A DNA stretch of 64,000 bases from a virus: positions 1 through 64,000 of IMG/VR virus record IMGVR_UViG_3300046330_000229. One strand, 5' to 3'. Below the pieces are notes generated by a model, which did not search any database, was not told the DNA's origin, and was given only the letters and a program-made list of their open reading frames with translations. A program made the translations under genes and the position numbers. Shown here one piece after another: positions 3,237 through 43,710 of the stretch (positions are counted from its first letter, which is position 1; the number at the start of each line of letters is the position of its first letter).

Positions 3237-3264
3237 GTTATACCTCTATATAATATATGTTAAA

Positions 3265-3674: not shown

Positions 3675-6600
3675 TTACCTTCTGTAAGCCCTGTTACTAG
3701 TGACTTCATATTCATAACTGATACCTAATATATTAAATTTCATAAAACAACTAGACTGGTAAACCCTAGCTCTAATATGACGACATCGCTGCTTTTGTCT
3801 AGGAATTAAAGTTCTTAGTGGGTAAGCTGTGCCATTACCGCCAAAAGCCGTATTACCAAACAAAGATCTACCAAAAGATCCGTCTCCGTCTAGTGTATAC
3901 TCCGTATTTTCAAAGTCTCCAGAAAGGTCCGAAGCATACCCTATAGTTAATTTATTAAGACTGTTTTGTTCAATCATAACAGATCCACCACTGACATGTT
4001 TTAGTAGAGAAGGGTCACCTAAAGTGTAAAACGACCAAATTATCTCAGACTTTATGCTCTTATAATGAACAAGGCTGCCGATGTAAAAGGGAGCTTTGTA
4101 TTGAATGTTTACAAAATTTTGAGAATAGTCAACATAGGTAATAATCATATCTAATTCTATCATACCTTCGGACTTAGTGTAATTAGAAAAGAACACTCCG
4201 TTAGAATTATTTAATGAATCAACTATAAGATTAAACTGAGTTTGCATGTCAAAATTAACACTAGAGTTATCGTAATAGTACTCTTCAGATAAAGTACCGT
4301 TGCCTGTGGATAATAAATCTACGACATCAGTTTTAAGTTGGAAAGAATTAGAAGTTACGTTTGTAATTCTATAAGTAACACCATCAACCAGTTCATTTGG
4401 AGCTATAGGAGCATTAGGTGCTGGTAGATTAACCGTATTAAAAGTTACAACATCACCATTAACAAATCCATGCTGTACAAAATTAATATAAGACGTGTTA
4501 AAATCTATATCCAATGCTAAATTAAAAGTGGCAACTTTAGCGCCTTTAGTTAATGTAGCTAATCCTATAGTTCCGCCCATTGGTTGCGTTAGAGCAAGAG
4601 GAGCTAGAGTTGTTAACTGGAAGCGATTAAGGGTATTATCTATGTTAGTTACTTGATAGTACTGTCCTGATGTTAAACCTGTAATCGGCGGCACACCAGC
4701 AGTATATTTAACCACTTCATTGTCATATAAATAATCGTTTAATCCTGGGTTGTATGTGATGTAATTAAGAGCAACGTTTACATCTGCTGGAGTTACAGCG
4801 ACGTTAACCTTGGACAAATCTTTAGTATTTAATTCTGTAACTAATTGAGATAGAGCGTTAATAAAGTCTGCTCCACCTACATCAGTCAATTTAGGAAATG
4901 TTTGACTAAAGTTAAGTTGTGGATCAAGTTTTAATCTTGAAACTAAATTATTATACTGAACAACAGTTAAATATTGCTCCTGCACCAAAGCGTCGCCTAT
5001 TTCCATATCAACAGAGTTATCAACGTACACTCGGTTTTGAGAAATACCCGCAGTAGCTCTGTCGTAAGATCTATCGGCGTAATCACGAGAAGTAAGCTTC
5101 TTTCGTTCTTGTTCCACAGCAGGAATGTCGTCAGTACCTAGATATAATTTATTTTGAGCACTAACAATACCACACACGGCTGATTTATCGAAAGATGTCC
5201 ATGTTTGAGTAAAAGTGTTGTATCTGTATGCAACTTTGGCTGTAACATTGTTTTCGGTTGTTACAACAAATATAAGATAAGATCTATCCGCTTCGTAACT
5301 AACACCAAACGTTGCTGTTGAAAAGTTCGTAAAATTCTCACTAGTAACACGGTTAAGTATGTTTTCAATAGGTCTAGAAATTACACCAACACCGGTCTCG
5401 GATATTGTAGACACACCTTGTGTTGTTAAACAGTATATCTGATTGTTCAATACAACAGCACTGTCGGGTGCTATAATTGTAGCTGAGTTATCAATTAAAT
5501 TTACAGTAAATGTCTGCTCATTTTCGCCAGTAAGACGATACACGCCTTCTTCTTTTAAAATGAATAAACTATCTTGCAAACCGATAATACGTTTGATCGC
5601 CTTATCTTGTGGACCAATTCTGAAAGCATTAACTGTAGGGACCGCTTCAGGTTGTTGTTCTTTAGAGAACATAAGCACATTGTTTCCAACATTATTAGTA
5701 GAACTTTGAGCAGAATCTAAGCTCGGATTAAAAGAGGGATTAGGAATAATAAATCCTGTACCTGTTATAACAAAAGGTGAATTAGAAAAGTTCTTCTCTT
5801 CTAAAAAGAATTGTCCAGGTAAACTAGTATCAGTAGATAGATAATAAGCATTCACTGCTGAAGACGGTGTAAATGTGATAGTTTTAACTAACGATTTAGC
5901 TGTATCTTCAATAGCAGCAGCAGGAGATGCGTAACTAGAAAGTCTAACAAAACCTAAAGCTGGATTTTCACCAAAACCATCTTGTGCTTTAAAAATACTA
6001 GTAAGAGAAGTACCTACTTGTGTAGCTGAAACAACGTCTGTTACGGCTCCACTTGTTGCTGTTGTAACAATTATTTCACTTGTTGGAATAGTAACAAAAC
6101 CATCTATACAACCGAAATCTCCAGTTAAATTAATAGCATCTTTGATCTTTTCTCTAACACTACTAGAGGTAGCTCCTGGAGAAAGGGCGGTCAAGTCTAT
6201 TTTAAATAGAACACGACCTGGAACAATAGGAGTAATATCTGCTATGTTTTTATTAAACCAAAAAGAATATTTAATTTTATCATCAATAGATGTTAAGTTG
6301 AAGTAGTCACCAGCAGTAACGTTGTCGTATTCTTTGTTAACTATATTAGTTATTTCAGGCTTACCAACAAAAAAGTATCTATTTATTTGTGAAGATTTAG
6401 TTACGGTAATATACGATCTGTACACAACGTAGTTTAATCCGAATAAAGCACTGTCAGCAGCTATCGTAACCGTTGTTGTTGTAATAGCTGTAACTTGATA
6501 CTGCCCGTCAACAGAAGTAGTATTAGCTAATGCTATATATTGACCCACAGTGACTCCATGACCTAATCCTAGTGTTATGGTTGCGGGATTACCCGAAGCT

Positions 6601-7844
6601 GCTGGAGCATCGATACCCGACTTAAATCCATCAAATCCAAGAAAAGTCATGTCTAATTTTTGTGTTGTTTTAGTATTAGCAAACCAAGCTCTGTTTTTAA
6701 ATTGACAAATGTCTTGTGATACTGGAGGACGACTATTGGCTTGTAATATTCCTTCGCCAGAAAATTCATTTGTGTAAAGTGGCACACCTGTGTCACGGAT
6801 GACTTCAGGAGTACTGTCTGTAACAGTAATTACAGTAGAGTAACCGTCATAAGGTACTTCTAAAACTAGACGCATCTCGTCGCCAGAACCGTTTACAACT
6901 TGAACATTAGTTCTATATACTTGATAAAAATAATCCGTAGTAATACCAGAAGGGACACCAAAAGATATATCAACATCAGCGTTAATCTGTGTTATGTTTT
7001 GAATTACAGCTCGTTCACTTGGAACACCTAATATAAGATTTTTATTAAAATCCTTAGTGCCCCATACTATTCGGTAAGCAACTTCAACATCATTGGCAGT
7101 AGGAGGGATAGGTCCCAAGAATCCACCAGATCCAGTGAAGTTTAAAGATAAATCCATACCTAGAGCTTGGATACCACCAGCATCAGATATAGCAAAATTA
7201 TTAAGCTGTGATACTTTTTTAATTCCAGTAGCCGTGGTCAAATACATGTTACTATTAAGCTCTATTGACTTAATACGTAAACGATCAACAACTTCATTAA
7301 CAGAATACTCACTAACTAAAGTAGCTCTACCGATACCTAGATTAATGGCAGGATTAGATAGAGAAGTAGCTATTTCAAACTCGTCTTTGTTTATTACATT
7401 TAATACAACAAATTCAGAAACTTCATTTATACCAGAAGGAAACGGGTAGAATTGTACACCAGACAAAGAGTAATCTCTTGTCTTAGTGAAAAATAATTTA
7501 GTACCAACAGCAAAACCATGGTCTACAATGTTAATATTAGTAGAAGGTGAAGCCAATTGAAAAAGTTTAGTACCCTTCATAATAGTAACATTTGCTGGAG
7601 TATTTAAATCCAAGAAACCTAAACTATTATCAAAATGAACAAACACTCTATCTTTATAGCTTAAAAGAGATTTAGCAAAATCAGGAAGGTCAGCAATTAC
7701 CCGCATACCGCGACGAGGCTCTAGTATATTGTCTCTATCTATAATAGTGTTAGAAGCAACGGTAAGGCTACCCTCTGGTGCGCTGGAGATGTAATTGGGA
7801 AAAGTCGAGAGACCTTTTGTTGTATTAATAGAGCTAGTAGCCAT
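3675..7844 (-). CDS. Tail nozzle / tail tubular protein B-like, with large beta-rich insertions
   Basis: 1389 aa; N-terminal GL..F..S.APEG.L..A.N..ID......PRRG pattern and beta-propeller-like blocks typical of podovirus stabilisation/nozzle proteins; downstream of the adaptor. Confidence 0.65.
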   Translation of the reverse strand: MATSSINTTKGLSTFPNYISSAPEGSLTVASNTIIDRDNILEPRRGMRVIADLPDFAKSLLSYKDRVFVHFDNSLGFLDLNTPANVTIMKGTKLFQLASPSTNINIVDHGFAVGTKLFFTKTRDYSLSGVQFYPFPSGINEVSEFVVLNVINKDEFEIATSLSNPAINLGIGRATLVSEYSVNEVVDRLRIKSIELNSNMYLTTATGIKKVSQLNNFAISDAGGIQALGMDLSLNFTGSGGFLGPIPPTANDVEVAYRIVWGTKDFNKNLILGVPSERAVIQNITQINADVDISFGVPSGITTDYFYQVYRTNVQVVNGSGDEMRLVLEVPYDGYSTVITVTDSTPEVIRDTGVPLYTNEFSGEGILQANSRPPVSQDICQFKNRAWFANTKTTQKLDMTFLGFDGFKSGIDAPAASGNPATITLGLGHGVTVGQYIALANTTSVDGQYQVTAITTTTVTIAADSALFGLNYVVYRSYITVTKSSQINRYFFVGKPEITNIVNKEYDNVTAGDYFNLTSIDDKIKYSFWFNKNIADITPIVPGRVLFKIDLTALSPGATSSSVREKIKDAINLTGDFGCIDGFVTIPTSEIIVTTATSGAVTDVVSATQVGTSLTSIFKAQDGFGENPALGFVRLSSYASPAAAIEDTAKSLVKTITFTPSSAVNAYYLSTDTSLPGQFFLEEKNFSNSPFVITGTGFIIPNPSFNPSLDSAQSSTNNVGNNVLMFSKEQQPEAVPTVNAFRIGPQDKAIKRIIGLQDSLFILKEEGVYRLTGENEQTFTVNLIDNSATIIAPDSAVVLNNQIYCLTTQGVSTISETGVGVISRPIENILNRVTSENFTNFSTATFGVSYEADRSYLIFVVTTENNVTAKVAYRYNTFTQTWTSFDKSAVCGIVSAQNKLYLGTDDIPAVEQERKKLTSRDYADRSYDRATAGISQNRVYVDNSVDMEIGDALVQEQYLTVVQYNNLVSRLKLDPQLNFSQTFPKLTDVGGADFINALSQLVTELNTKDLSKVNVAVTPADVNVALNYITYNPGLNDYLYDNEVVKYTAGVPPITGLTSGQYYQVTNIDNTLNRFQLTTLAPLALTQPMGGTIGLATLTKGAKVATFNLALDIDFNTSYINFVQHGFVNGDVVTFNTVNLPAPNAPIAPNELVDGVTYRITNVTSNSFQLKTDVVDLLSTGNGTLSEEYYYDNSSVNFDMQTQFNLIVDSLNNSNGVFFSNYTKSEGMIELDMIITYVDYSQNFVNIQYKAPFYIGSLVHYKSIKSEIIWSFYTLGDPSLLKHVSGGSVMIEQNSLNKLTIGYASDLSGDFENTEYTLDGDGSFGRSLFGNTAFGGNGTAYPLRTLIPRQKQRCRHIRARVYQSSCFMKFNILGISYEYEVTSNRAYRR

Positions 7845-26844: not shown

Positions 26845-28815
26845 TTACTGTCTTGGTGGTTGGATGTTAGGATTCATCTGTAAAGATGGATCTACTGCCG
26901 GAGCTTCTGGTACAGGTCCGGTGTTATCTGGTTCACTCATTGGTCCAGCTTCAGGAGACATTTGTCCCTGTACGTTCTGACCACCCTGTTCCGGTGGAGG
27001 TTGCATGCCAGCAAGACTAGGGATTTTTAAAATACTTAACAATCCTGGGTCTGTTGTTTTCATAAGATCGACATGCTCTAAAATATGTTGATAAACTAAA
27101 TCAGCAACTTCACCTTCGCGTAAATCTGGATCAGCAATCACAGCTTGATGTTCTAAAATATGCTGTACGTGATCATCTAAGGCAATAGCTCTAACTGGAA
27201 CACCTAACATCATCTTTTCATTTTCAGATAAAGCTAAAATAGTATGACGTTGAGTTGGATCGATCATTACATCTAGTCTTCCTGATGTAAGTACCGTTAA
27301 ATAGTCAGCAGGATTTTTGATGATACCGTATTGCAACATATCTGTAGCAATTTGAGCACGTCCTGCGTGAGTTTGAGACAACGGATTGGCAACTTCAACA
27401 GTGACGCGATTGATTTTATCTAGATCGTCACCAACAAATTGTTTCTCAATATAATTTTTATTAGCTAATCCACCAAGCATAACGATGCGAGGAGTGTTTG
27501 CAAATGTTTTCAATAAATTAATTACACCAGTTCCAACATCTTCCATCAAACGTATATATTGTTGCTGAAGACCTGACATGTATTGTAAAGATGTAGATTG
27601 AACTAGAGCTAAAGCTGTACCTGAACGTAAAGATGCTTCTGGATTTCCTCTGGTTACAGAAGATACTCCAGAGATTGTTTCCATTTGTGTCTCTAACGTT
27701 TTAGCGAAATTAAATACTTCTGCTGGAGTGTTAGTGAAGTTGATAGGAACTGGAGCTTCGTTACCTTCAATGATGTTTAATCCACCTTCTAAAGATTTAG
27801 GCATAATATCAGATCCGCGTTTAACGAAAATACTTTGCACAGCAAATGCTGATTGATTAGAAAGAATAGCAGAGTATGTAGCATTTAACGCATCTTGAAT
27901 TTGTAGTAAAGGAAACATCGGAGAGTAACCAAAAGATGTACCCATAACGTCACGAGCTGCAACACGGTAAATTGGTAAACCTGGATACGGATTAGCCATG
28001 TCCATTAACGTTGTTGTATCATCTACGAACAATAAATAACGACCATCAGGCATAGCGTCTGTTTTTTTATGAATAAATTCATATACAGCAATGTCATCTG
28101 TTCTATTTTCAGAGAATAAGTCCATACCATAATTAAAGTAATCGTCTGCTGGACGAACGTTCTTAATTTTCTCAGCTTGATCAGGGTATTTAGCCATTAG
28201 GTCATATTTGTTTTTAAATGTACGGCATAAAACCCAGTCGTGTTCTTCTGACGAACGATTAACATCAAACATAACATTGAAAGGTGTAATATTACGAAAT
28301 TCAATATCACCTTCTTTAGTTTCAACGCCAGTTTCATCATCAATATCATAAACAGCACCAAGTGTAGCATTCCATTCCATTTTAATGTAACCAGTACCTA
28401 AAATAAGAGCAGATTCAACAGCCTTAGACAAATACTTCTCTAAGTTTTTTTCTCTCATGTAATATTCAAGAAGAGAGGCAGCTAATTTGGATTGAATAAT
28501 AGATTTACTGTCAGAATTAGAAGCTTTAGCAGCAAATGCCGGCTTATTAGCTGTAATCATGACGTGCATGTGTTGAGCAATATTACAATAGTGATTAATG
28601 TCTATTTTAGTAAGCTCGCCTTGTTCGCCACCAAAAGAAATTTTGTGTCCGTCTGAACCACTAAACATTCCATGATAAGCTAAATACGAACGTTGTATTG
28701 TATCGAAGTAGTTATTAGAATATAACCCTTTGTACCAGTCATTAGCTCGACGAAGCAAATCCGATGCTGTCGTATCCGAGTCCTGGGCTGCGAAGTACTT
28801 GTTTGAATCTGACAT
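26845..28815 (-). CDS. Portal protein
   Basis: 656 aa after the terminase; G.GYIK..W, METISGVSSVTRG, SGTALAL motifs; P/Q-rich tail. Confidence 0.85.
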   Translation of the reverse strand: MSDSNKYFAAQDSDTTASDLLRRANDWYKGLYSNNYFDTIQRSYLAYHGMFSGSDGHKISFGGEQGELTKIDINHYCNIAQHMHVMITANKPAFAAKASNSDSKSIIQSKLAASLLEYYMREKNLEKYLSKAVESALILGTGYIKMEWNATLGAVYDIDDETGVETKEGDIEFRNITPFNVMFDVNRSSEEHDWVLCRTFKNKYDLMAKYPDQAEKIKNVRPADDYFNYGMDLFSENRTDDIAVYEFIHKKTDAMPDGRYLLFVDDTTTLMDMANPYPGLPIYRVAARDVMGTSFGYSPMFPLLQIQDALNATYSAILSNQSAFAVQSIFVKRGSDIMPKSLEGGLNIIEGNEAPVPINFTNTPAEVFNFAKTLETQMETISGVSSVTRGNPEASLRSGTALALVQSTSLQYMSGLQQQYIRLMEDVGTGVINLLKTFANTPRIVMLGGLANKNYIEKQFVGDDLDKINRVTVEVANPLSQTHAGRAQIATDMLQYGIIKNPADYLTVLTSGRLDVMIDPTQRHTILALSENEKMMLGVPVRAIALDDHVQHILEHQAVIADPDLREGEVADLVYQHILEHVDLMKTTDPGLLSILKIPSLAGMQPPPEQGGQNVQGQMSPEAGPMSEPDNTGPVPEAPAVDPSLQMNPNIQPPRQ

Positions 28816-28849: not shown

Positions 28850-30373
28850 CTAGCGTTTACGGCCTCTAAGTTTAGGGGTAAACAGCTCCTTGGCAAAAGT
28901 CTCAAATGGGGTCTTATTTGCGTCTTGCGGGTTCTGATTATAGAAGTAATTAGAGTTATAACCTTCTGATGGGTTAGGGTTTTTCTGAAAATTGACGTTA
29001 CGACACAAGTACATAAGTGCAGCTATACCATCGTAGTGACCTTTATCGGGACTACGAGAGAAACTAGTCTTGGCTTTGTTCCAAGTACCTGATTTTAAAT
29101 GCTTTATTAGGTTTACACACTTAGGATCTATGATGATTTTCTCCGATTTTATCAACATTCGCATGTTATTAAGGGCACCATCGAAGTTATCCTTGGCTGT
29201 AGGCATAAAAGTAAGATTGTGCTTTACTGACAAATCTTGTAATAAGATCAAATTATTGTTATCCGCCACTCTCAAATGTGGTTTATTGGGTTCACCTAGC
29301 TGAAAGTTGAAATAACTAGCTAGTTCCTTGTTTTTAACCTCTAAGGCTAAATTATCAGTAAGCATTGACTTTCCTGATAGCACTAGTTCGTCTTTTATAA
29401 CTAGTTTTGCATTTTGGAAATCATATAAAGCGAAAATAACAAAAGTTAAATCTTTAAAACCAATATCCATAGATACGTAACCATCATAGTGCTGAGGGTT
29501 AATCCACGGTTTGATAATTTTATCTCGTAAAGCTTCGTTTGTAAACTCAGGCACAACGCAATTATCTTCATCGACAACAATGTTACACAAATACTCTCGT
29601 TGAAAAGAAGAAGACTCTAAACCACCAATAGGTGCTGCTATTTCTTTAGCAATATACTCGCGTGTGTCTGTGTAACCGCTATCGATAGCATCGTTATCCA
29701 TACGTTCATTGTCGTAAATAGTATATTTAATTAGTTTATCATTAAATTCGTAATCATTCATGTACTTAATGAAATCATGATCATTAGTTTTAGATGGAGT
29801 TGAAGCCATTAGGATTTTTTTACCCTTTGTACCTGTACCTCGAGTGATAGTTGGTAGCAAAATAGACTTGATGATGTATTCTAAGTCATGACAGAAGCCC
29901 GCCTCATCAACGATACACAGATCTGCGGAGATACCACGTACCTTTTCAGCATTACCCTTTTCAGTACCAGCCAGATGTATCTCCGAACCATTCATTTCAA
30001 AGACAATCTTACCTTCATTAGCTTTATATTTAATTTTATCACGAATATTCTTTGGACAGTCTTCCAAAATAGCTCTGAAATTAGGCAAAACTACGGTCTT
30101 AAGATCTTTTGCTGTAGGAGCAAGGTATTTAACAATAGCGTTAGGTTTTTTTAGACACAATTCAATAGCTGTAGTCAATAAAGCGAAGGTTTTACCCCAT
30201 GCACGAGAACAAGCAACTACCATAATCTTATCGGTGCTATTATGTAGCTTATTGTACATATCTTTTTGTGTTCTATGCAATTTATAAGTTAAATTAGGAA
30301 TAGCCCAAAGCTTAGCAATTGCTGCTGCCTTAGAAATAGCAGGACTATTCTTTTCTGGTGGCTGCTGCGACAA
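28850..30373 (-). CDS. terL: Terminase large subunit
   Basis: Walker A SRAWGKT, Walker B IVDEAG, ASTP motif III, FQREYL, RNase H-like MDIG, C-terminal HYDGIAALMY. Confidence 0.92.
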   Translation of the reverse strand: MSQQPPEKNSPAISKAAAIAKLWAIPNLTYKLHRTQKDMYNKLHNSTDKIMVVACSRAWGKTFALLTTAIELCLKKPNAIVKYLAPTAKDLKTVVLPNFRAILEDCPKNIRDKIKYKANEGKIVFEMNGSEIHLAGTEKGNAEKVRGISADLCIVDEAGFCHDLEYIIKSILLPTITRGTGTKGKKILMASTPSKTNDHDFIKYMNDYEFNDKLIKYTIYDNERMDNDAIDSGYTDTREYIAKEIAAPIGGLESSSFQREYLCNIVVDEDNCVVPEFTNEALRDKIIKPWINPQHYDGYVSMDIGFKDLTFVIFALYDFQNAKLVIKDELVLSGKSMLTDNLALEVKNKELASYFNFQLGEPNKPHLRVADNNNLILLQDLSVKHNLTFMPTAKDNFDGALNNMRMLIKSEKIIIDPKCVNLIKHLKSGTWNKAKTSFSRSPDKGHYDGIAALMYLCRNVNFQKNPNPSEGYNSNYFYNQNPQDANKTPFETFAKELFTPKLRGRKR

Positions 30374-37917: not shown

Positions 37918-38068
37918 TGATACATCTTTACATTTTTATGTACAACAGATAGGTGTTACGCCTATGTCCGAATTATTAGAGCAAATTAAAAGATACCGAC
38001 TATGGAGAGAAGGTATGTCAAAGATTACTTCTTTGTATTTTACTGACGGAAGGTTTAAAAATGAATAG
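37910..38068 (+). CDS. Family B micro-paralog (IGxxP), not in the ORF track
   Basis: TTG start; MASDTSLHFYVQQIGVTPMSELLEQ...; 52 aa; overlaps both neighbours. Confidence 0.55.
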   Translation: MASDTSLHFYVQQIGVTPMSELLEQIKRYRLWREGMSKITSLYFTDGRFKNE

Positions 38069-38389
38069 TACAACAACGGCTATATGTAGTAAAATTGAAG
38101 AGATTATCGGTACATTTAAAAGTAAAATCCGAACAGCAGAAGCTTTAATGAAAGTGTTGGAGACGTTATCTCTTTATGAAGTTGGGATTGATAAAAATTC
38201 ACACAGACTATATCATTTTAAATATAAACTTATTAATGACGTGAGTAGTAATGAAGTACAATTTAAGATTGTAGCATTTCCTATTGACGCTTTAATGGGA
38301 GAACAAGATAGAGTATTATCAGTTGATGACTTACAAAATAATTACTTACCCTACTCTGTTAGTACAAGACAGGTGTTACCGGATAAAAA

Positions 38390-39498
38390 ATGAAAATAGA
38401 CCTTGGAGTACTGGACACACCTTATATATACATAATTCCTTATATGTTAGGTAAAACTTCTATTACTTGGTGTTTTATTTACCAAAACGCTATTATAAAG
38501 GCTAACACAGATGTGTGTGTTTCTAGTACAAGATTCTGGCGCTTAACTGAGATACTGTCTAAAAGATTTGGAATTGTTATATAATGAGACATTGGACAAG
38601 TAGATTCTTGCATAGAGAAAATAGTGCTAGCCACGTTTTTATATTTAAAATTCTATGTTTTTATTTAGGCAAAGTTCCTTTAAAATATTTGTCTGTGTAC
38701 ATAGAGATGTTGTGTAGAATAAGTTTTTCACAAGAAGTGGAATTTCTTAGGTATAGTAAAATAGACCAATACCTAGATAAAAGGCTTGTTAGACAATACG
38801 GGAGACATAATGTTTAAGGTGGGTAAGTGGACAAAGTACGCAACACAGCCTGATATCATTACCACACACGTACTAGGTAACTTAACTAAACACATAGGCA
38901 TTATGCCGATGGTAACTTTAACTAAATATGTAGAATTTATGTACCGTATAAAATTCGATAGGACTGTTTCAGCAGCTAGATACTACCGTCTTCGCCCTTA
39001 CTTACTAAGACGAATTACTAGACAATACGGAGTAATTCGGTGAATAATTTGAATAATTATACCTACGCTACGTTTTTTAATAGAAACTACCTATGTATAG
39101 CTTTGATGAAAAGAATCGGACAAATGCCCATGCGTTTTATACTACTATATACAAAAGCTTTGTATCATTCATGGAATAACTATATGTATTTAAAAACTGG
39201 TCCAGTTGGTAAGTATGACCGTTTATGTGAATGGTTAATGAAACGATATAACATAAGGTTTAGATAAATGGTCAGGTACGAATTTTTTATAGAAAGTGAA
39301 TTTACTGTACGACACCTTCGGACCGCAGTGGGTGTGATTCCTTGTAGAGTTATAGCCTTTTGGATTAATCTTATATGGAACACTTATTGCGATAGCTCAA
39401 GACAAATGACATACTTGAGATATAATAAATTGTGCGACCGAGTGATTAAACGTTATCCGCAAATTTTTGTTGACAAACCTACCTATTCTATGATATAG
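38390..39498 (+). other. Five family B micro-paralog CDSs (38390, 38584, ~38810, 39040, 39268)
   Basis: MLGKTS, YLGKVP, HIGIMP, RIGQMP, AVGVIP; shared C-terminal Y..L...L..RY/F pattern. Confidence 0.65.
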
Positions 39499-39523
39499 TG
39501 ATAGTATACCGCAAGGAGTTATA

Positions 39524-39898
39524 GTGAAAGATTTAGTGATGCCTAGGCTGTTAAAAGTTGTCGATATTTCAGCACCAGATAGACGTAACAGGATATATAC
39601 AAAAGTGCACATGTTCATGATGGACAGCGACCATTTTTTACGCCTAGCTAACTCGTTTAACTATGGTGAAATTTCAGCACTGGAGTGCCGAGTGGGTGTG
39701 TGCGTTAAACATCCCGACGATGACCATAATCCCAATTATAGCCAAGAGTTGGCCGAGTCTAGGTATAAGAAAATCTTATCTCGCATATTACATATCCTTA
39801 GTACCCCGAGCGAAGTTGTTATACAAACCGAGCATTACAGAATCGAGTATAGCCGGCTCGATCACTCATTATTCGTATCAGCTACCTCGCCATTATGA
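39524..39898 (+). CDS. Hypothetical protein
   Basis: AAGGAG RBS and sigma70-like promoter upstream. Confidence 0.55.
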   Translation: MKDLVMPRLLKVVDISAPDRRNRIYTKVHMFMMDSDHFLRLANSFNYGEISALECRVGVCVKHPDDDHNPNYSQELAESRYKKILSRILHILSTPSEVVIQTEHYRIEYSRLDHSLFVSATSPL

Positions 39899-40131
39899 GT
39901 GGCCGCCCTCGTTAAAATTTGACGCAATACAGGCCGCTCTAATAATAACTTTTCGTCTACAAAACATAATACTCTAACACATATCTAAGGTTATTAGTTT
40001 TAGGGCATTAATAACCAAAAATGACTATTAACTTTTGCCTTACAGGATATATAAATAGTGCTTCAAATCGAATATAACAGCAACAGAAGAAAAGACTTGA
40101 CTTTATACTCTGTGTGTGGTATTGTTATTAT

Positions 40132-42024
40132 ATGAGCGCGTACAATATACCAAAAGCTGTGTTAGAACGGGTACTTAGCGGATTAGGGGTGGCCCCTTCT
40201 GCAAATATTGCACGCCTTTTATGTGCTTTGGAATGTTACTATACAACCTCTTACGAGTCGGATTCTGAGTTATTTGATGAAGTGGCTACCCTCAATATTA
40301 AAGAAAGACTAAGAAAGTTCTACCCAACAAAGGACTATTCTCAGATTTACTATTACGAAGAAGCTCGGGTTACAAAACTTAACATAGAAAAGTTATTAGA
40401 TGAAGCAGCCGTATGATGCTATTGTCAAACAGGCCTTCACTGACTATATAGGAGTGGCTCCTATGTCTGCTATTTTAGCCTACATAGACGATTATTTAAT
40501 AGTTACATGGAAACATTTCGGCTGGGTTACTGTTGAAAATCCCACACCAAGCTTATATAAGGCAGCGTCGGCAGTGTCTAGACATATAGACATACACGGT
40601 ATAGAACATCGATATGACGCAACCAACGCTAAGTGGATAGCTTATATTAGACAGGAGCAGATATGACGTACGAATTGAATCATGAAGCCCGTCGAATAAT
40701 ACTATCTCTTATTGGAGTAGCTCCTATGGAAGTTATTAATTTACATTTATCAAATCTTGAAACTAGGACACCAGCACGAAGTTATCGATGGGCACTTATA
40801 CGTGAATATGACCATATTAGGATGTACCCAACTATTGATAATGTTTGTCTTTTAGGTGATGACGGCAGATGTTATTATTACAATAAATATCAAGAGTATA
40901 TGACTGTATGGGAAGCTACAATATGACAGTGAGACACCACATATCATCCTTTATCGGTATTGTACCCATGGAACTGATAACGAAGTCATTACTTCATTAC
41001 GGAGGGTGCCATTATGACATCGGGGCCGCGTGGGTGCTACATCCTAAAAATAAGACCGTTAAGCTCTATAGAGCAGCCAATAGCGATTTACACTTAAGTA
41101 CTGACGGTGAGATATACATAAGTGATAGATGGGCCTTATTTAGATTAAACAGGATTTCTTTATGAATAAAGATATAGGCTATCTAGTTGAAAACATTGGT
41201 ATAATACCTACAAAGGTTATTACATTAGCTATTAAAAAAGAACTACGGCGTTGTGACACAAATCGTGGACATTGGTCGGAAACAGCAGAACCGAGTACAT
41301 ATTGGCCCGTTATGTACTCAGAAGAGATATATTACATTGACGAACAAGGTGAGTTCTATTATACAGCATTTGATGGGTCATGGCAGATATGGAGAGAGTC
41401 TCGTGACTAAAGAAGAGTTTGTAGAACTAGTGGGTATTATGCCTTCAAACGAGCTATTACTGTGCTGGGAGCGTTCTACTGACGAACGGAATGAAAGACT
41501 ACGCACAGGCAGGTCTACCGGCTACGCGTGGACTGAAATGGACGGACTACCTATGTGTACGTTATATCGAGTTAATCGTAACTGGTTGTACGGATCTGAT
41601 GGTAATTGCTATATATTAGATGTATCAGAAGAGGTAGGCCTGGAAGTGTGGCATATATGGGAGAAAGTGTCATGACAATAGCTCAAACTATAATGCAAGG
41701 ACTGGGAATTATGCCTACAAAGGTTATAGCTAATCTATTAAAAGAATACAAGGGTGTTGGTGACTACAAAGTACACACCGTATTATGGAGGCGTGCTGGT
41801 AGTAAAAATAACAAACATAAATTCTTATGTAAAGGACATAGTACTAGTTATTACCACGATGTGTATACAAATGGTAAGAGATTGTATTTAGACACAACTG
41901 GAGGAATGTTCCTTATTCCTAATACGGAGAAACAAGCCTAATGACAATACGAGATGTGATAGCTTCCAGCATAGGGGTTATACCCGCCCACAATGTTAAA
42001 GAGTTATTAGCTTATAATGATTGA
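40132..42024 (+). other. Eight family B micro-paralog CDSs (40132, 40400, 40663, ~40923, 41162, ~41403, 41672, and a short 27-aa one at 41941)
   Basis: GLGVAP, YIGVAP, LIGVAP, FIGIVP, NIGIIP, LVGIMP, GLGIMP, SIGVIP near each N-terminus. Confidence 0.7.
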
Positions 42025-42110
42025 ACTGAGGTTATTAGTTATATAGTGCTTAGCGAGCTAGTGAGACTGTCACCACGGCCCATCGCGTATACACCTCCTA
42101 CCCCCCTATA

Positions 42111-42380
42111 TGCAAACTACATGCCAACTCTCCCCTTGCAAGAACTATACCAACGTATTGTTTTGATACATGGTATGATACTTGCACTCTTCAATATTCA
42201 TGCCTACTATATTTATATACATCCAGCATTGTATGTGCATTGACCATTGTCAGTGTCCTATAGACGTATAGCGACTCTATCTACAGAGGAGCTATATGTT
42301 TGTGTATGTATCTATTATCTTTTAACTATAGACTTATTACAGCGTGTAATGATGTTGTGCATTCTGGTATATATATTGCA
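42111..42380. promoter_or_regulatory. Cluster of sigma54 (-24/-12) boxes
   Basis: Minus strand: TGGCATGTAGTTTGCA (42111-42126) and TGGTATAGTTCTTGCA (42137-42152); plus strand: TGGTATGATACTTGCA (42171-42186) and TGGTATATATATTGCA (42365-42380); all GG-N10-GC. Confidence 0.75.
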
Positions 42381-42655
42381 GAGTGTGTATTCTTTATGTG
42401 TTATATATTCGATATGGTTGTGTTAGATCGTATATGTTTGTTATAAGGCGTGTTTGTGTGTCTATTCATTTATACCTACATATAACCACTATCTATCTAT
42501 ATCTTGTCAACCTTTATTTATTTTGGATACACCTCTAGATTATTAGGAGTCAATCCGTTTATTACAATGTATCTTTTGGATATCAAGGTTGTACATAAGG
42601 TACGATATACTTCAGATATTCGATACGATATTCTAATAATACGCATCTTATATAT

Positions 42656-42800
42656 ACTAGAGTAGTTGTCCGCCTGTCCCTTATTTACAGCTAGGGATTA
42701 GGTGCTCTCTGTTAGCTTAGTCCGATCTTAGCCTTGATTTTTACTCTTAGCCTCAAATAGTTCTTATCGTATTGTTTACGGTCTAGCTCTAGTTATCTTG
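42656..42800 (-). ncRNA. Candidate late-expressed structured RNA or leader
   Basis: Downstream of a late-promoter motif; closing stem ACUAGAGCUAG / CUACUCUAGU; internal UCCCU/AGGGA stem. Confidence 0.45.
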
Positions 42801-42814
42801 TCTTACTATATATG

Positions 42815-43024
42815 TTAACCGTGCTTAGTTACATGGATTATGTAATGTCTAGCTGCGGATAAAATATCTTTTGGATATCCTTTTTTATTATTTGAATGTT
42901 CAGCAATGTGCGGTGCGAGCTTTAAGCAAAATTCTATATCGTTTCTTAATAACGCTAACTCAAAAGCTTGATCTACATTAGTCTGTATTTTTCTATTCTT
43001 ATATCGTTTTCTTTTTACTGTCAT
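42815..43024 (-). CDS. Small basic hypothetical protein
   Basis: MTVKRKRYKNRK...; own TTGACA-17-TATAGT promoter (43062-43034). Confidence 0.5.
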   Translation of the reverse strand: MTVKRKRYKNRKIQTNVDQAFELALLRNDIEFCLKLAPHIAEHSNNKKGYPKDILSAARHYIIHVTKHG

Positions 43025-43058
43025 AATCTCATTACTATACACTATATTTTGTACACTG

Positions 43059-43086
43059 TCAAGTAAATAATCACTAATGCCGATAA
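43059..43086 (+). promoter_or_regulatory. sigma28 (FliA)-type promoter
   Basis: TCAAGTAA-N12-GCCGATAA. Confidence 0.7.
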
Positions 43087-43188
43087 GTGAATAACTACAT
43101 TATGTTAGCCGTTTTCTAATATCTTTATTTAAAATATATGCTTATAAGTTTTACACTGTCAGATAGCCGCTTGTGCTTTAAATTACAC

Positions 43189-43217
43189 TTGACACGGCAC
43201 TACGATTGCAATACACT
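43189..43217 (+). promoter_or_regulatory. Nested sigma70 and sigma54 promoter
   Basis: TTGACA-N17-TACACT, with CGGCACTACGATTGCA (43195-43210) occupying the spacer. Confidence 0.75.
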
Positions 43218-43254
43218 TAATCAAGATGCTCAAACATAACAAAAGGATAAAACA

Positions 43255-43710
43255 ATGAAATATTACTCAAGATCAAATATGTACAAGTCAGGTCAGAACT
43301 TAGTCCTAAACATGAATAACATGGTTGCAACGTCTTACGAATGGTATACATTAGCTAAGCAATTGAATAATGGCACAATGCTATTAAATATTTATAACTA
43401 TTCAAGTACAACGGTAAGACATTATTACAAGATGCGTAAACAGTTAACGAGCTTAGGTCTTGACATAATTGAGATTGAAGCGCCAAAAGGTCTACAAGAC
43501 TTAACTAGTGCTGTCAACTTATACAAGCGTTATATCACTGACTTGGAATCTGCCATTGATAAAAAGGGTAGCCGGTCGAGCACTAACGCAGTGCGTAGCG
43601 AGCTTATAAAGACATACAAGGAAAAAATACACTTTATTACTAGCATTCAATTTATGGAATCTAAACCCTCGCCAATTGAACGAGTTATGTATAACATGGA
43701 CGGTAAGTAA
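43255..43710 (+). CDS. Putative first early gene, hypothetical
   Basis: AAAGGA RBS; preceded by three promoter types; YSSTTVRH motif. Confidence 0.65.
   Translation: MKYYSRSNMYKSGQNLVLNMNNMVATSYEWYTLAKQLNNGTMLLNIYNYSSTTVRHYYKMRKQLTSLGLDIIEIEAPKGLQDLTSAVNLYKRYITDLESAIDKKGSRSSTNAVRSELIKTYKEKIHFITSIQFMESKPSPIERVMYNMDGK

Follow-up and report, generated by a model that had tools for sequence, protein, structure and literature searches.

Clustered putative sigma-54 boxes in gene-free DNA of an uncultured freshwater phage: a possible docking array for host RNA polymerase

INTRODUCTION

What use might a phage have for several sigma-54 boxes packed closely together in DNA that carries no convincing gene? 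To our knowledge, sigma-54 is unique among bacterial sigma factors in its stable binding to DNA without transcription, and phage use of sigma-54 is known to us from one phage, YuA. The boxes considered here lie at 42111-42380 of a 64,000-nucleotide stretch of viral DNA (the window), positions 1 to 64,000 of an 82,265-bp IMG/VR record. The original prediction, made from the letters of the window, was that these boxes may form a decoy, a roadblock or a loading platform for host sigma-54 polymerase, or else that they mark a DNA end, and that no phage element like this has been described. The last point agrees with our search of the full-text literature, which yielded no account of arrays of sigma-54 sites, or of decoys or sponges for sigma-54, in phages and no natural sigma-54 decoy array.

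RESULTS

Source genome and setting of the locus

The record represents an uncultured freshwater phage of ~35% GC, and ~100% identical copies of the phage are present in many freshwater metagenomes (Logan contigs); no RNA data set is listed among the sequencing runs that contain it. Its closest cultured terminase is that of a Silvanigrella phage, with 29% identity, and those of T5-like phages are next. A BLAST comparison of the region with cultured phages gave no match, and the array fragments from other contigs gave nothing useful. The minus strand from position 1 to ~31 kb carries the structural genes, including those for the portal (26845-28815) and TerL (28850-30373), and 31 to 78 kb is filled by rightward genes. 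Within the structural module, a 1,389-aa protein encoded at 3675-7844 (minus strand) has no PHROG or Pfam match and is 62% identical to its counterpart in the relative described below. The phage's own promoters are canonical sigma-70 promoters (cTTGACAa-N14-TGn-TAnnnT), which indicates that the host uses standard sigma-70 signals. No RNA polymerase or sigma factor gene was recognized in a scan of a few large proteins.

To the left of the boxes, the region from 38000 to 42024 contains ~12 tandem micro-paralog genes (27 to 100 aa) with the common motif I-G-[VI]-x-P-[MT]. No homology was detected between these micro-paralogs and the small genes at the corresponding position in the relative. The features at and around the boxes are as follows, from left to right.

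41941-42024, plus strand: last tandem micro-paralog gene (27 aa, called from sequence), which closes the rightward early block
42028-42110, plus strand: conserved C-rich, G-poor leader, rut-like for rightward RNA, which abuts box 1
42111-42126, minus strand: putative sigma-54 box 1, TGGCATGTAGTTTGCA (pattern match; the orthologue in the relative is at 5949(-))
42137-42152, minus strand: putative sigma-54 box 2, TGGTATAGTTCTTGCA, 26 nt from box 1 (pattern match)
42171-42186, plus strand: putative sigma-54 box 3, TGGTATGATACTTGCA, divergent with box 2, 34 nt start to start
42190-42205, minus strand: degenerate box, AGGCATGAATATTGAA, convergent with box 3, 19 nt start to start
42206-42807, no strand: spacer without ORFs, whose sequence is not conserved with the relative
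42365-42380, plus strand: putative sigma-54 box 4, TGGTATATATATTGCA, within a short palindrome (pattern match)
42381-42458, minus strand: tract with G over C on the plus strand, C-rich and G-poor for leftward RNA and rut-like (rank 5 of 8,219)
42808-42818, minus strand: late-type motif TTAACATATAT, which points leftward at the array (exact copy)
42815-43062, minus strand: small leftward gene for a 68-aa protein (start codon ATG at 43021), with sigma-70 promoter TTGACA-17-TATAGT at 43062-43034
43189-43217, plus strand: sigma-70 promoter TTGACA-17-TACACT of the first rightward gene past the gap (43255)

Density of the boxes

Both strands of the 64-kb window and of the whole 82,265-bp genome were searched for the pattern TGGYAY-N5-TTGCW. 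There are four exact boxes in the window and the same four in the whole genome, and all of them lie at 42111-42380. The expected number is 0.31 per window based on shuffled sequences (none of 100 shuffles reached four) and 0.3 per genome based on Markov controls, and the Poisson estimate of the probability that at least four matches would all lie inside 270 bp is ~3e-11. The four boxes within 270 bp, two per strand, that had been predicted are therefore found, at 42111(-), 42137(-), 42171(+) and 42365(+), and three of them lie within 76 bp, with the degenerate box at 42190-42205(-) beside them as claimed. The enrichment that would be expected of a real cluster is also present by this pattern search, in that four boxes against 0.3 to 0.4 expected in the whole genome is far over background.

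The statement that no convincing gene lies downstream of these boxes holds as well. There is no ORF of more than 65 aa in 42030-42810, and the gap from 42025 to 43254 contains no ORF that is common to this phage and its relative. Scans of this gap for tRNAs and Rfam families found neither, no conserved RNA fold was detected downstream of any box, and no conserved inverted repeat stood out in the array region. The possibility that the leader encodes a conserved small RNA was not supported, since there is no fold signal on either strand (z scores of 0.08 and -0.33).

Sequence features of the boxes

The boxes are probably true sigma-54 (-24/-12) sites. They have the -24/-12 layout, TGGCAY plus TTGCW with the GG and the GC exactly ten bases apart, and T1, G2, G3, A5, T6 and T13-G-C-A are almost invariant among the boxes of the cluster. 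Sigma-54 recognition predicts this kind of pattern, in which two conserved blocks are separated by one helical turn and the 5 nt between them are free. For comparison, we used 168 non-redundant boxes from the arrays of unrelated viral contigs. Where the search pattern leaves the base free, these 168 boxes have T at -27 (52%), G at -20 (56%), a purine at -19 (73%) and T at -15 (85%), which at the sequence level matches the extended sigma-54 consensus (-27 Y, -20 G, -19 R, -15 T). The array-bearing viral contigs range from 27 to 64% GC, belong to ~20 groups and have no neighboring gene common to all of them. The presence of the same motif across such a range of GC content and in ~20 unrelated groups points to recognition by a universally conserved host factor. 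RpoN sites of Escherichia coli have the same consensus spacing and flanking preferences as the array boxes (PMC4591121). In contrast to bacterial sigma-54 sites, which are single or simple divergent pairs that each serve a gene with an activator, the array consists of five boxes on both strands, packed 19 to 34 nt apart, with neither a gene nor an activator.

Other interpretations of the motif were considered. Sigma-70 promoters with an extended -10 element (TGnTAnnnT) were rejected as an explanation of the boxes, since 5 of 11 boxes have the last T of the -10 element and no -35 element matches at more than 3 of 6 positions. The one-mismatch hits elsewhere, two in this phage (43195 and 76725) and three in its relative (17179, 29149 and 32000), were classified as sigma-70 promoters instead of sigma-54 sites. 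In these hits either the TGG is part of an extended -10 element or the "box" falls within a sigma-70 spacer, as it does for the one-mismatch match inside the spacer of the promoter at 43189-43217. G-runs after the -12 element were not supported as a further feature of the sites, being found downstream of 12 of the 168 boxes and upstream of 12 of the 168.

No recognizable activator is encoded by the phage. In the whole genome, Sigma54_activat (PF00158) gave no match above the cut-off; the sole match, in a MoxR-like ATPase, scored 9.9 bits, which is at the level of a shared Walker-A/P-loop. A GAFTGA-type loop is absent in this phage and in the relative. Sigma54_DBD also had no match above the cut-off in the genome, so that the phage encodes no recognized sigma-54.

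Converging transcription and rut-like flanks

The rightward early operon meets leftward signals at this position and there is no hairpin terminator, which makes the array a point of converging transcription. No intrinsic terminator is predicted anywhere in 41500-43400. In addition to the promoter of the 68-aa gene, TTGACA at 42510(-) is a weaker possible sigma-70 promoter, directed leftward toward the array. The motif TTAACATATAT has eight exact copies, all on the minus strand (at 3253, 9546, 16176, 20456, 21534, 28835, 31135 and 42808), of which seven lie in gaps of the structural module and the eighth is isolated beside the sigma-54 array. It is a candidate phage-specific late promoter without a -35 element. 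The combination of this motif with a leftward sigma-70 promoter is also found at the syntenic place in the relative (motif at ~6478-6488). The 68-aa protein encoded at 42815-43021 belongs to no Pfam family. A separate repeat, TATCTTTTGGATATC, contains a short inverted repeat and is present in two exact copies 295 nt apart, at 42570-42584 and 42865-42879, with a looser third copy at 42516-42544. The small basic 68-aa protein might use this repeat as an operator.

Rut sites, at which Rho loads, are C-rich, G-poor and unstructured as RNA. The leader next to box 1 has this composition, being C-rich, G-poor and poorly structured. A 78-nt window at 42071 contains 42% C and 12% G and ranks first of ~8,200 windows for C over G, and the syntenic window in the relative likewise ranks first in that genome. 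The tract at 42381-42458, on the other side of the array, has the opposite skew, which makes it C-rich for leftward RNA; this right-hand rut-like tract is lacking in the relative. In the wider class of viral arrays described below, an inward C-rich flank (z > 2) accompanies 20 of 95 arrays, compared with ~4.6% expected, and the opposite sign is found in 5%. Rut-like composition is a weak predictor of Rho termination.

Conservation of the array in a diverged relative

Relatives of the phage were sought in viral and metagenome contigs by means of the neighboring 151-aa protein, TerL, the capsid protein and the MoxR ATPase. The search yielded one close relative (G001) plus fragments that are without the region or without the boxes. 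G001 is 81,942 bp in length and syntenic with this phage genome-wide, with 63% identity in TerL and 85% in the capsid protein. Boxes are found at the syntenic spot at 5949(-), 5972(+), 6005(-), 6031(-), 6069(-) and 6103(+), which are four exact copies of TGGCAT-N5-TTGCA and two copies with one mismatch. Thus, the cluster (six syntenic boxes) has been retained in a diverged relative, a conservation that rests on two genomes of the lineage.

The small genes that flank the array have no detectable homology between the two phages, and the only part of the gap that aligns is 42028-42212, which is 66% identical to G001 5869-6052. Since the array and leader align while the flanking genes do not, they appear to be a constrained segment of an otherwise hypervariable region. 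The two genomes also have the same pair geometry, with tandem pairs 26 nt apart and a divergent pair 34 nt apart (6069(-)/6103(+) in G001). The orientation of an individual box is not kept. A homologous TTGCAAG core is the -12 element of the minus-strand box at 42137 here and of the plus-strand box at 5972 in G001, and the former -24 element at the flipped box has decayed from ATACCA to ATATTA. The flip of a homologous box suggests that its presence is selected and that its direction is not.

A class of viral arrays

When viral contigs were scanned for divergent box pairs, 39 loci were found, and a scan with the same seed pattern of 596 Gb of bacterial genomes found 69 loci. Compared as counts, not densities, at least four boxes per 600 bp are present in 18 of 38 viral loci, one of which has 13, versus 2 of 69 bacterial loci; 58 of the 69 bacterial loci contain only the two seed boxes. 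For same-strand pairs, 164 non-redundant neighbor distances were collected from at least 119 viral loci, with even sampling between 16 and 46 nt. Among the same-strand pairs listed, 78 of 164 are separated by 26 to 28 nt, 25 by 35 to 37 nt and 11 by 41 nt, with almost none at 19 to 24 or 30 to 34 nt; the linkers vary while the pitch is kept. The class modes among the matches listed are 18 to 21 nt for convergent pairs and 26 nt for divergent pairs. A pitch of 26 to 28 nt puts the start of transcription (~12 nt past the GC) inside the next box, which argues against ordinary promoters that work independently of each other. This distance is also similar to the closed-complex footprint reported for sigma-54 holoenzyme, ~-34 to -5. 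Boxes 1 and 2 of the present array (26 nt) fall in the same-strand mode, and box 3 and the degenerate box (19 nt) in the convergent mode.

Both orientations are mixed in 70 of 107 arrays. One-strand arrays have no clear bias toward a downstream gene (19 versus 16, from crude ORF calls). There are 9 of 75 arrays at or within 1 kb of a contig end, where 3.8 are expected (~2.4-fold, p ~0.013), and in three nearly complete linear contigs the array is 24 to 950 bp from an end.

Several members of this class, and some loci outside it, have features of their own. Arrays in several unrelated viral contigs lie 0.3 to 3.5 kb upstream of genes for the terminase (the DUF5681 small subunit and TerL), frequently right at an end of the contig (L056 859-2527, L033 2393-4055, L029 9617-11393 and L149 3639-5171). 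An unrelated 82.6-kb phage group (L022 5077-7056 and G008:C1 375-4539) has divergent box pairs with a fixed 42-nt offset every 550 to 700 bp, one pair ahead of each of four to five consecutive small genes, and this looks like real per-gene promoter use. Two Bacteroidaceae MAGs carry one three-box unit with a 21-nt pitch on eight contigs (L072, L081, L093, L100, L102, L107, L111 and L112), which looks like a dispersed repeat that carries sigma-54 boxes. L108, positions 304001-312000 of a Chitinophagales MAG contig, has 14 exact boxes over ~5 kb, mostly on one strand, and may be a prophage region run by sigma-54 promoters.

DISCUSSION

Occupancy by parked polymerase

Our preferred reading, which we put forward tentatively, is that parked sigma-54 polymerase is a brake and/or a sink where transcription converges, and that it acts by occupancy and not by firing. 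Sigma-54 binding, the brake and the sink are all inferred from the DNA. Sigma-54 holoenzyme has been observed to bind promoters in a transcriptionally inactive state (PMC4591121). The five boxes would be docking sites for the sigma-54 RNA polymerase of the host and, since stable binding of the holoenzyme requires no activator and none is supplied by the phage, polymerases would remain parked along ~270 bp. Together, these closed complexes would act as a protein brake and assist Rho in ending transcription at the boundary. The effect would be greatest at low genome copy number. As sigma-54 is scarce, the brake might be tight at one copy and loosen as copies rise. A linked payoff would be a drain on the small sigma-54 pool as the genome copies multiply.

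An occupancy role is consistent with the position of all exact boxes at one locus, the orientation flip, the 26-nt packing, and the lack of an activator and of a downstream ORF or RNA. It is also consistent with rut-like flanks that face inward where there is no intrinsic terminator. Several observations argue against it. On the same reasoning from scarcity, a brake on a hundred genome copies would leak, and holoenzymes 19 to 26 bp apart may clash, which makes full occupancy uncertain. Other phages (L022 and G008) seem to put single boxes before genes in a promoter-like manner. In E. coli, in which 135 sigma-54 sites have been mapped and ~250 or more are estimated, most of them intragenic, single intragenic sites did not cause roadblock repression (PMC4591121). 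The proposal of a decoy, roadblock or platform is upheld in part: an occupancy role fits the flips, the 26-nt spacing and the lack of an activator and a gene, but promoter use is still a strong rival.

Working sigma-54 promoters

It is possible, although we consider it somewhat unlikely, that the boxes are promoters activated by an enhancer-binding protein of the host or by a phage activator that was not recognized, with the cluster acting as an antenna for scarce holoenzyme. The products would be non-coding or antisense RNA in both directions: leftward RNA would be antisense to the micro-paralogs or would encode a 14- to 16-aa peptide, and rightward RNA would run into the ORF-free spacer. Sites with -24/-12 elements are normally promoters, boxes are on both strands in both genomes, and a Shine-Dalgarno-like sequence and an ATG follow the first minus-strand box in both this phage and G001. 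The single plus-strand box 50 to 200 nt before each of several genes in L022 and G008 is promoter-like, and this keeps the promoter reading strong. However, neither an activator gene nor a GAFTGA motif is present in the phage, the DNA downstream contains no conserved ORF or RNA fold, and one homologous box has been flipped. The 19- to 26-nt pitch would place starts inside neighboring boxes, and the one-strand arrays of the class (19 versus 16) are without clear gene-side bias by the crude ORF calls.

The known case of phage dependence on sigma-54 is of a different form. YuA is reported to be strictly dependent on host sigma-54, and phage use of this factor is called "rare" but "not unprecedented" (PMC5053324); another report gives one mapped sigma-54-like start site for YuA (PMC10914365). 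Both cite Ceyssens et al. (2008) for the sigma-54-dependent promoters of YuA. The YuA record (NC_010116) has three separate same-strand -24/-12 promoter fragments before late structural genes, and a search of this genome with TGGYAY-N5-TTGCW found no canonical box and no array. The Silvanigrella phage, checked as a cultured example, has one canonical box. The phage studied here resembles YuA in that it would rely on host sigma-54 without encoding sigma-54. It differs in that its array is two-way, gene-free and in the early region, whereas the YuA fragments are single, on the same strand and associated with late genes.

A pure decoy

A decoy in which the array soaks up host sigma-54 as genomes multiply and thereby turns off the stress, motility and defense programs of the host, with its position irrelevant, strikes us as unlikely. 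The sites are close to consensus and of putative high affinity, and both the indifference to orientation and the lack of an activator are compatible with a sponge, as is the frequency of loci with at least four boxes per 600 bp (18 of 38 viral versus 2 of 69 bacterial). Since only ~250 sites are estimated for E. coli (PMC4591121), a few hundred extra phage sites could matter. Transcription factor decoys and sigma competition (PMC4591121) share with this proposal the idea of sites without output that buffer a regulator. Nevertheless, five sites per genome are a small sponge, and a pure decoy does not account for an array that stays at one syntenic junction beside the most rut-like tract, or for the modest tendency of arrays elsewhere toward contig ends and packaging genes. 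We are aware of no advantage that this phage would gain from a loss of sigma-54. Salmonella cells without rpoN were more resistant to two phages, through indirect metabolic routes (PMC8744999).

Another binding protein, or a genome end

It is equally unlikely, in our estimation, that the boxes are bound by another protein, such as a phage regulator, a replication initiator (at iterons), a packaging protein or a host protein that binds tandem repeats, in which case the resemblance to sigma-54 sites would be a coincidence. The box is a direct TKGCA repeat one helical turn apart, which winged-helix dimers might also read, and a spacing of 19 to 26 nt suits a protein smaller than RNA polymerase. 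Arrays that lie 0.3 to 3.5 kb upstream of terS/terL at contig ends in several phages would suit a packaging protein. Against such a protein, the motif, including positions -27, -20, -19 and -15, recurs in ~20 unrelated groups of 27 to 64% GC with no common neighboring gene family. On the same grounds, lineage-specific repeats such as iterons or cosB/pac were rejected, and sites for a DUF5681 small terminase were rejected because a DUF5681 TerS is missing in this phage and the array is 12 kb from TerL. Lambda cosB consists of terminase R sites plus the host factor IHF, and elsewhere in the class arrays likewise lie between a contig end and terS/terL. The present array differs from cosB in being 12 kb from the terminase genes and in having the consensus of a host factor, not of a phage-specific TerS site.

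It is very improbable that the array marks a genome end or origin, with sigma-54 as the host factor for the start of packaging, DNA entry, end protection or origin opening. In favor of this reading, the terminases most similar to TerL are those of T5-like phages, whose genomes have long terminal repeats, and of a Silvanigrella phage, and arrays in three nearly complete linear contigs are 24 to 950 bp from an end (9 of 75 arrays within 1 kb versus 3.8 expected). Against it, that enrichment is only ~2.4-fold, the 24-bp terminal repeat of this record is an assembly overlap distant from the array, contigs from four metagenomes run through the array with no common break, joint or loose end, and there is no turn in GC skew at 42 kb. 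The earlier suggestion of a DNA-end mark thus retains weak support for the class and none for this genome.

Implications

To return to parked polymerase, the regularities of the class suggest a broader version of the occupancy reading, which we consider rather doubtful and present as speculation. Arrays with a 26- to 28-bp pitch in many unrelated phages could be a copy-number-sensitive switch that works through parked, non-firing host polymerase. It is similarly speculative that the brake would be full at one copy and then released by titration, with sigma-54 being drained from the stress and motility programs of the host. The class offers three checkable regularities, namely, the 26- to 28-nt pitch, the turnover of orientation and the inward rut-like flanks, and the array studied here is a compact, conserved 270-bp test object with a diverged orthologue.

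If dense arrays without an activator do dock polymerase in dozens of unrelated phages, then phages would exploit sigma-54 far more often than has been thought. If the occupancy reading is true, it would point to a possible non-transcriptional use of sigma-54 by phages, as a brake, a timer or a sink, and the array would belong to a new class of phage cis-element in which a host sigma factor is a structural part.
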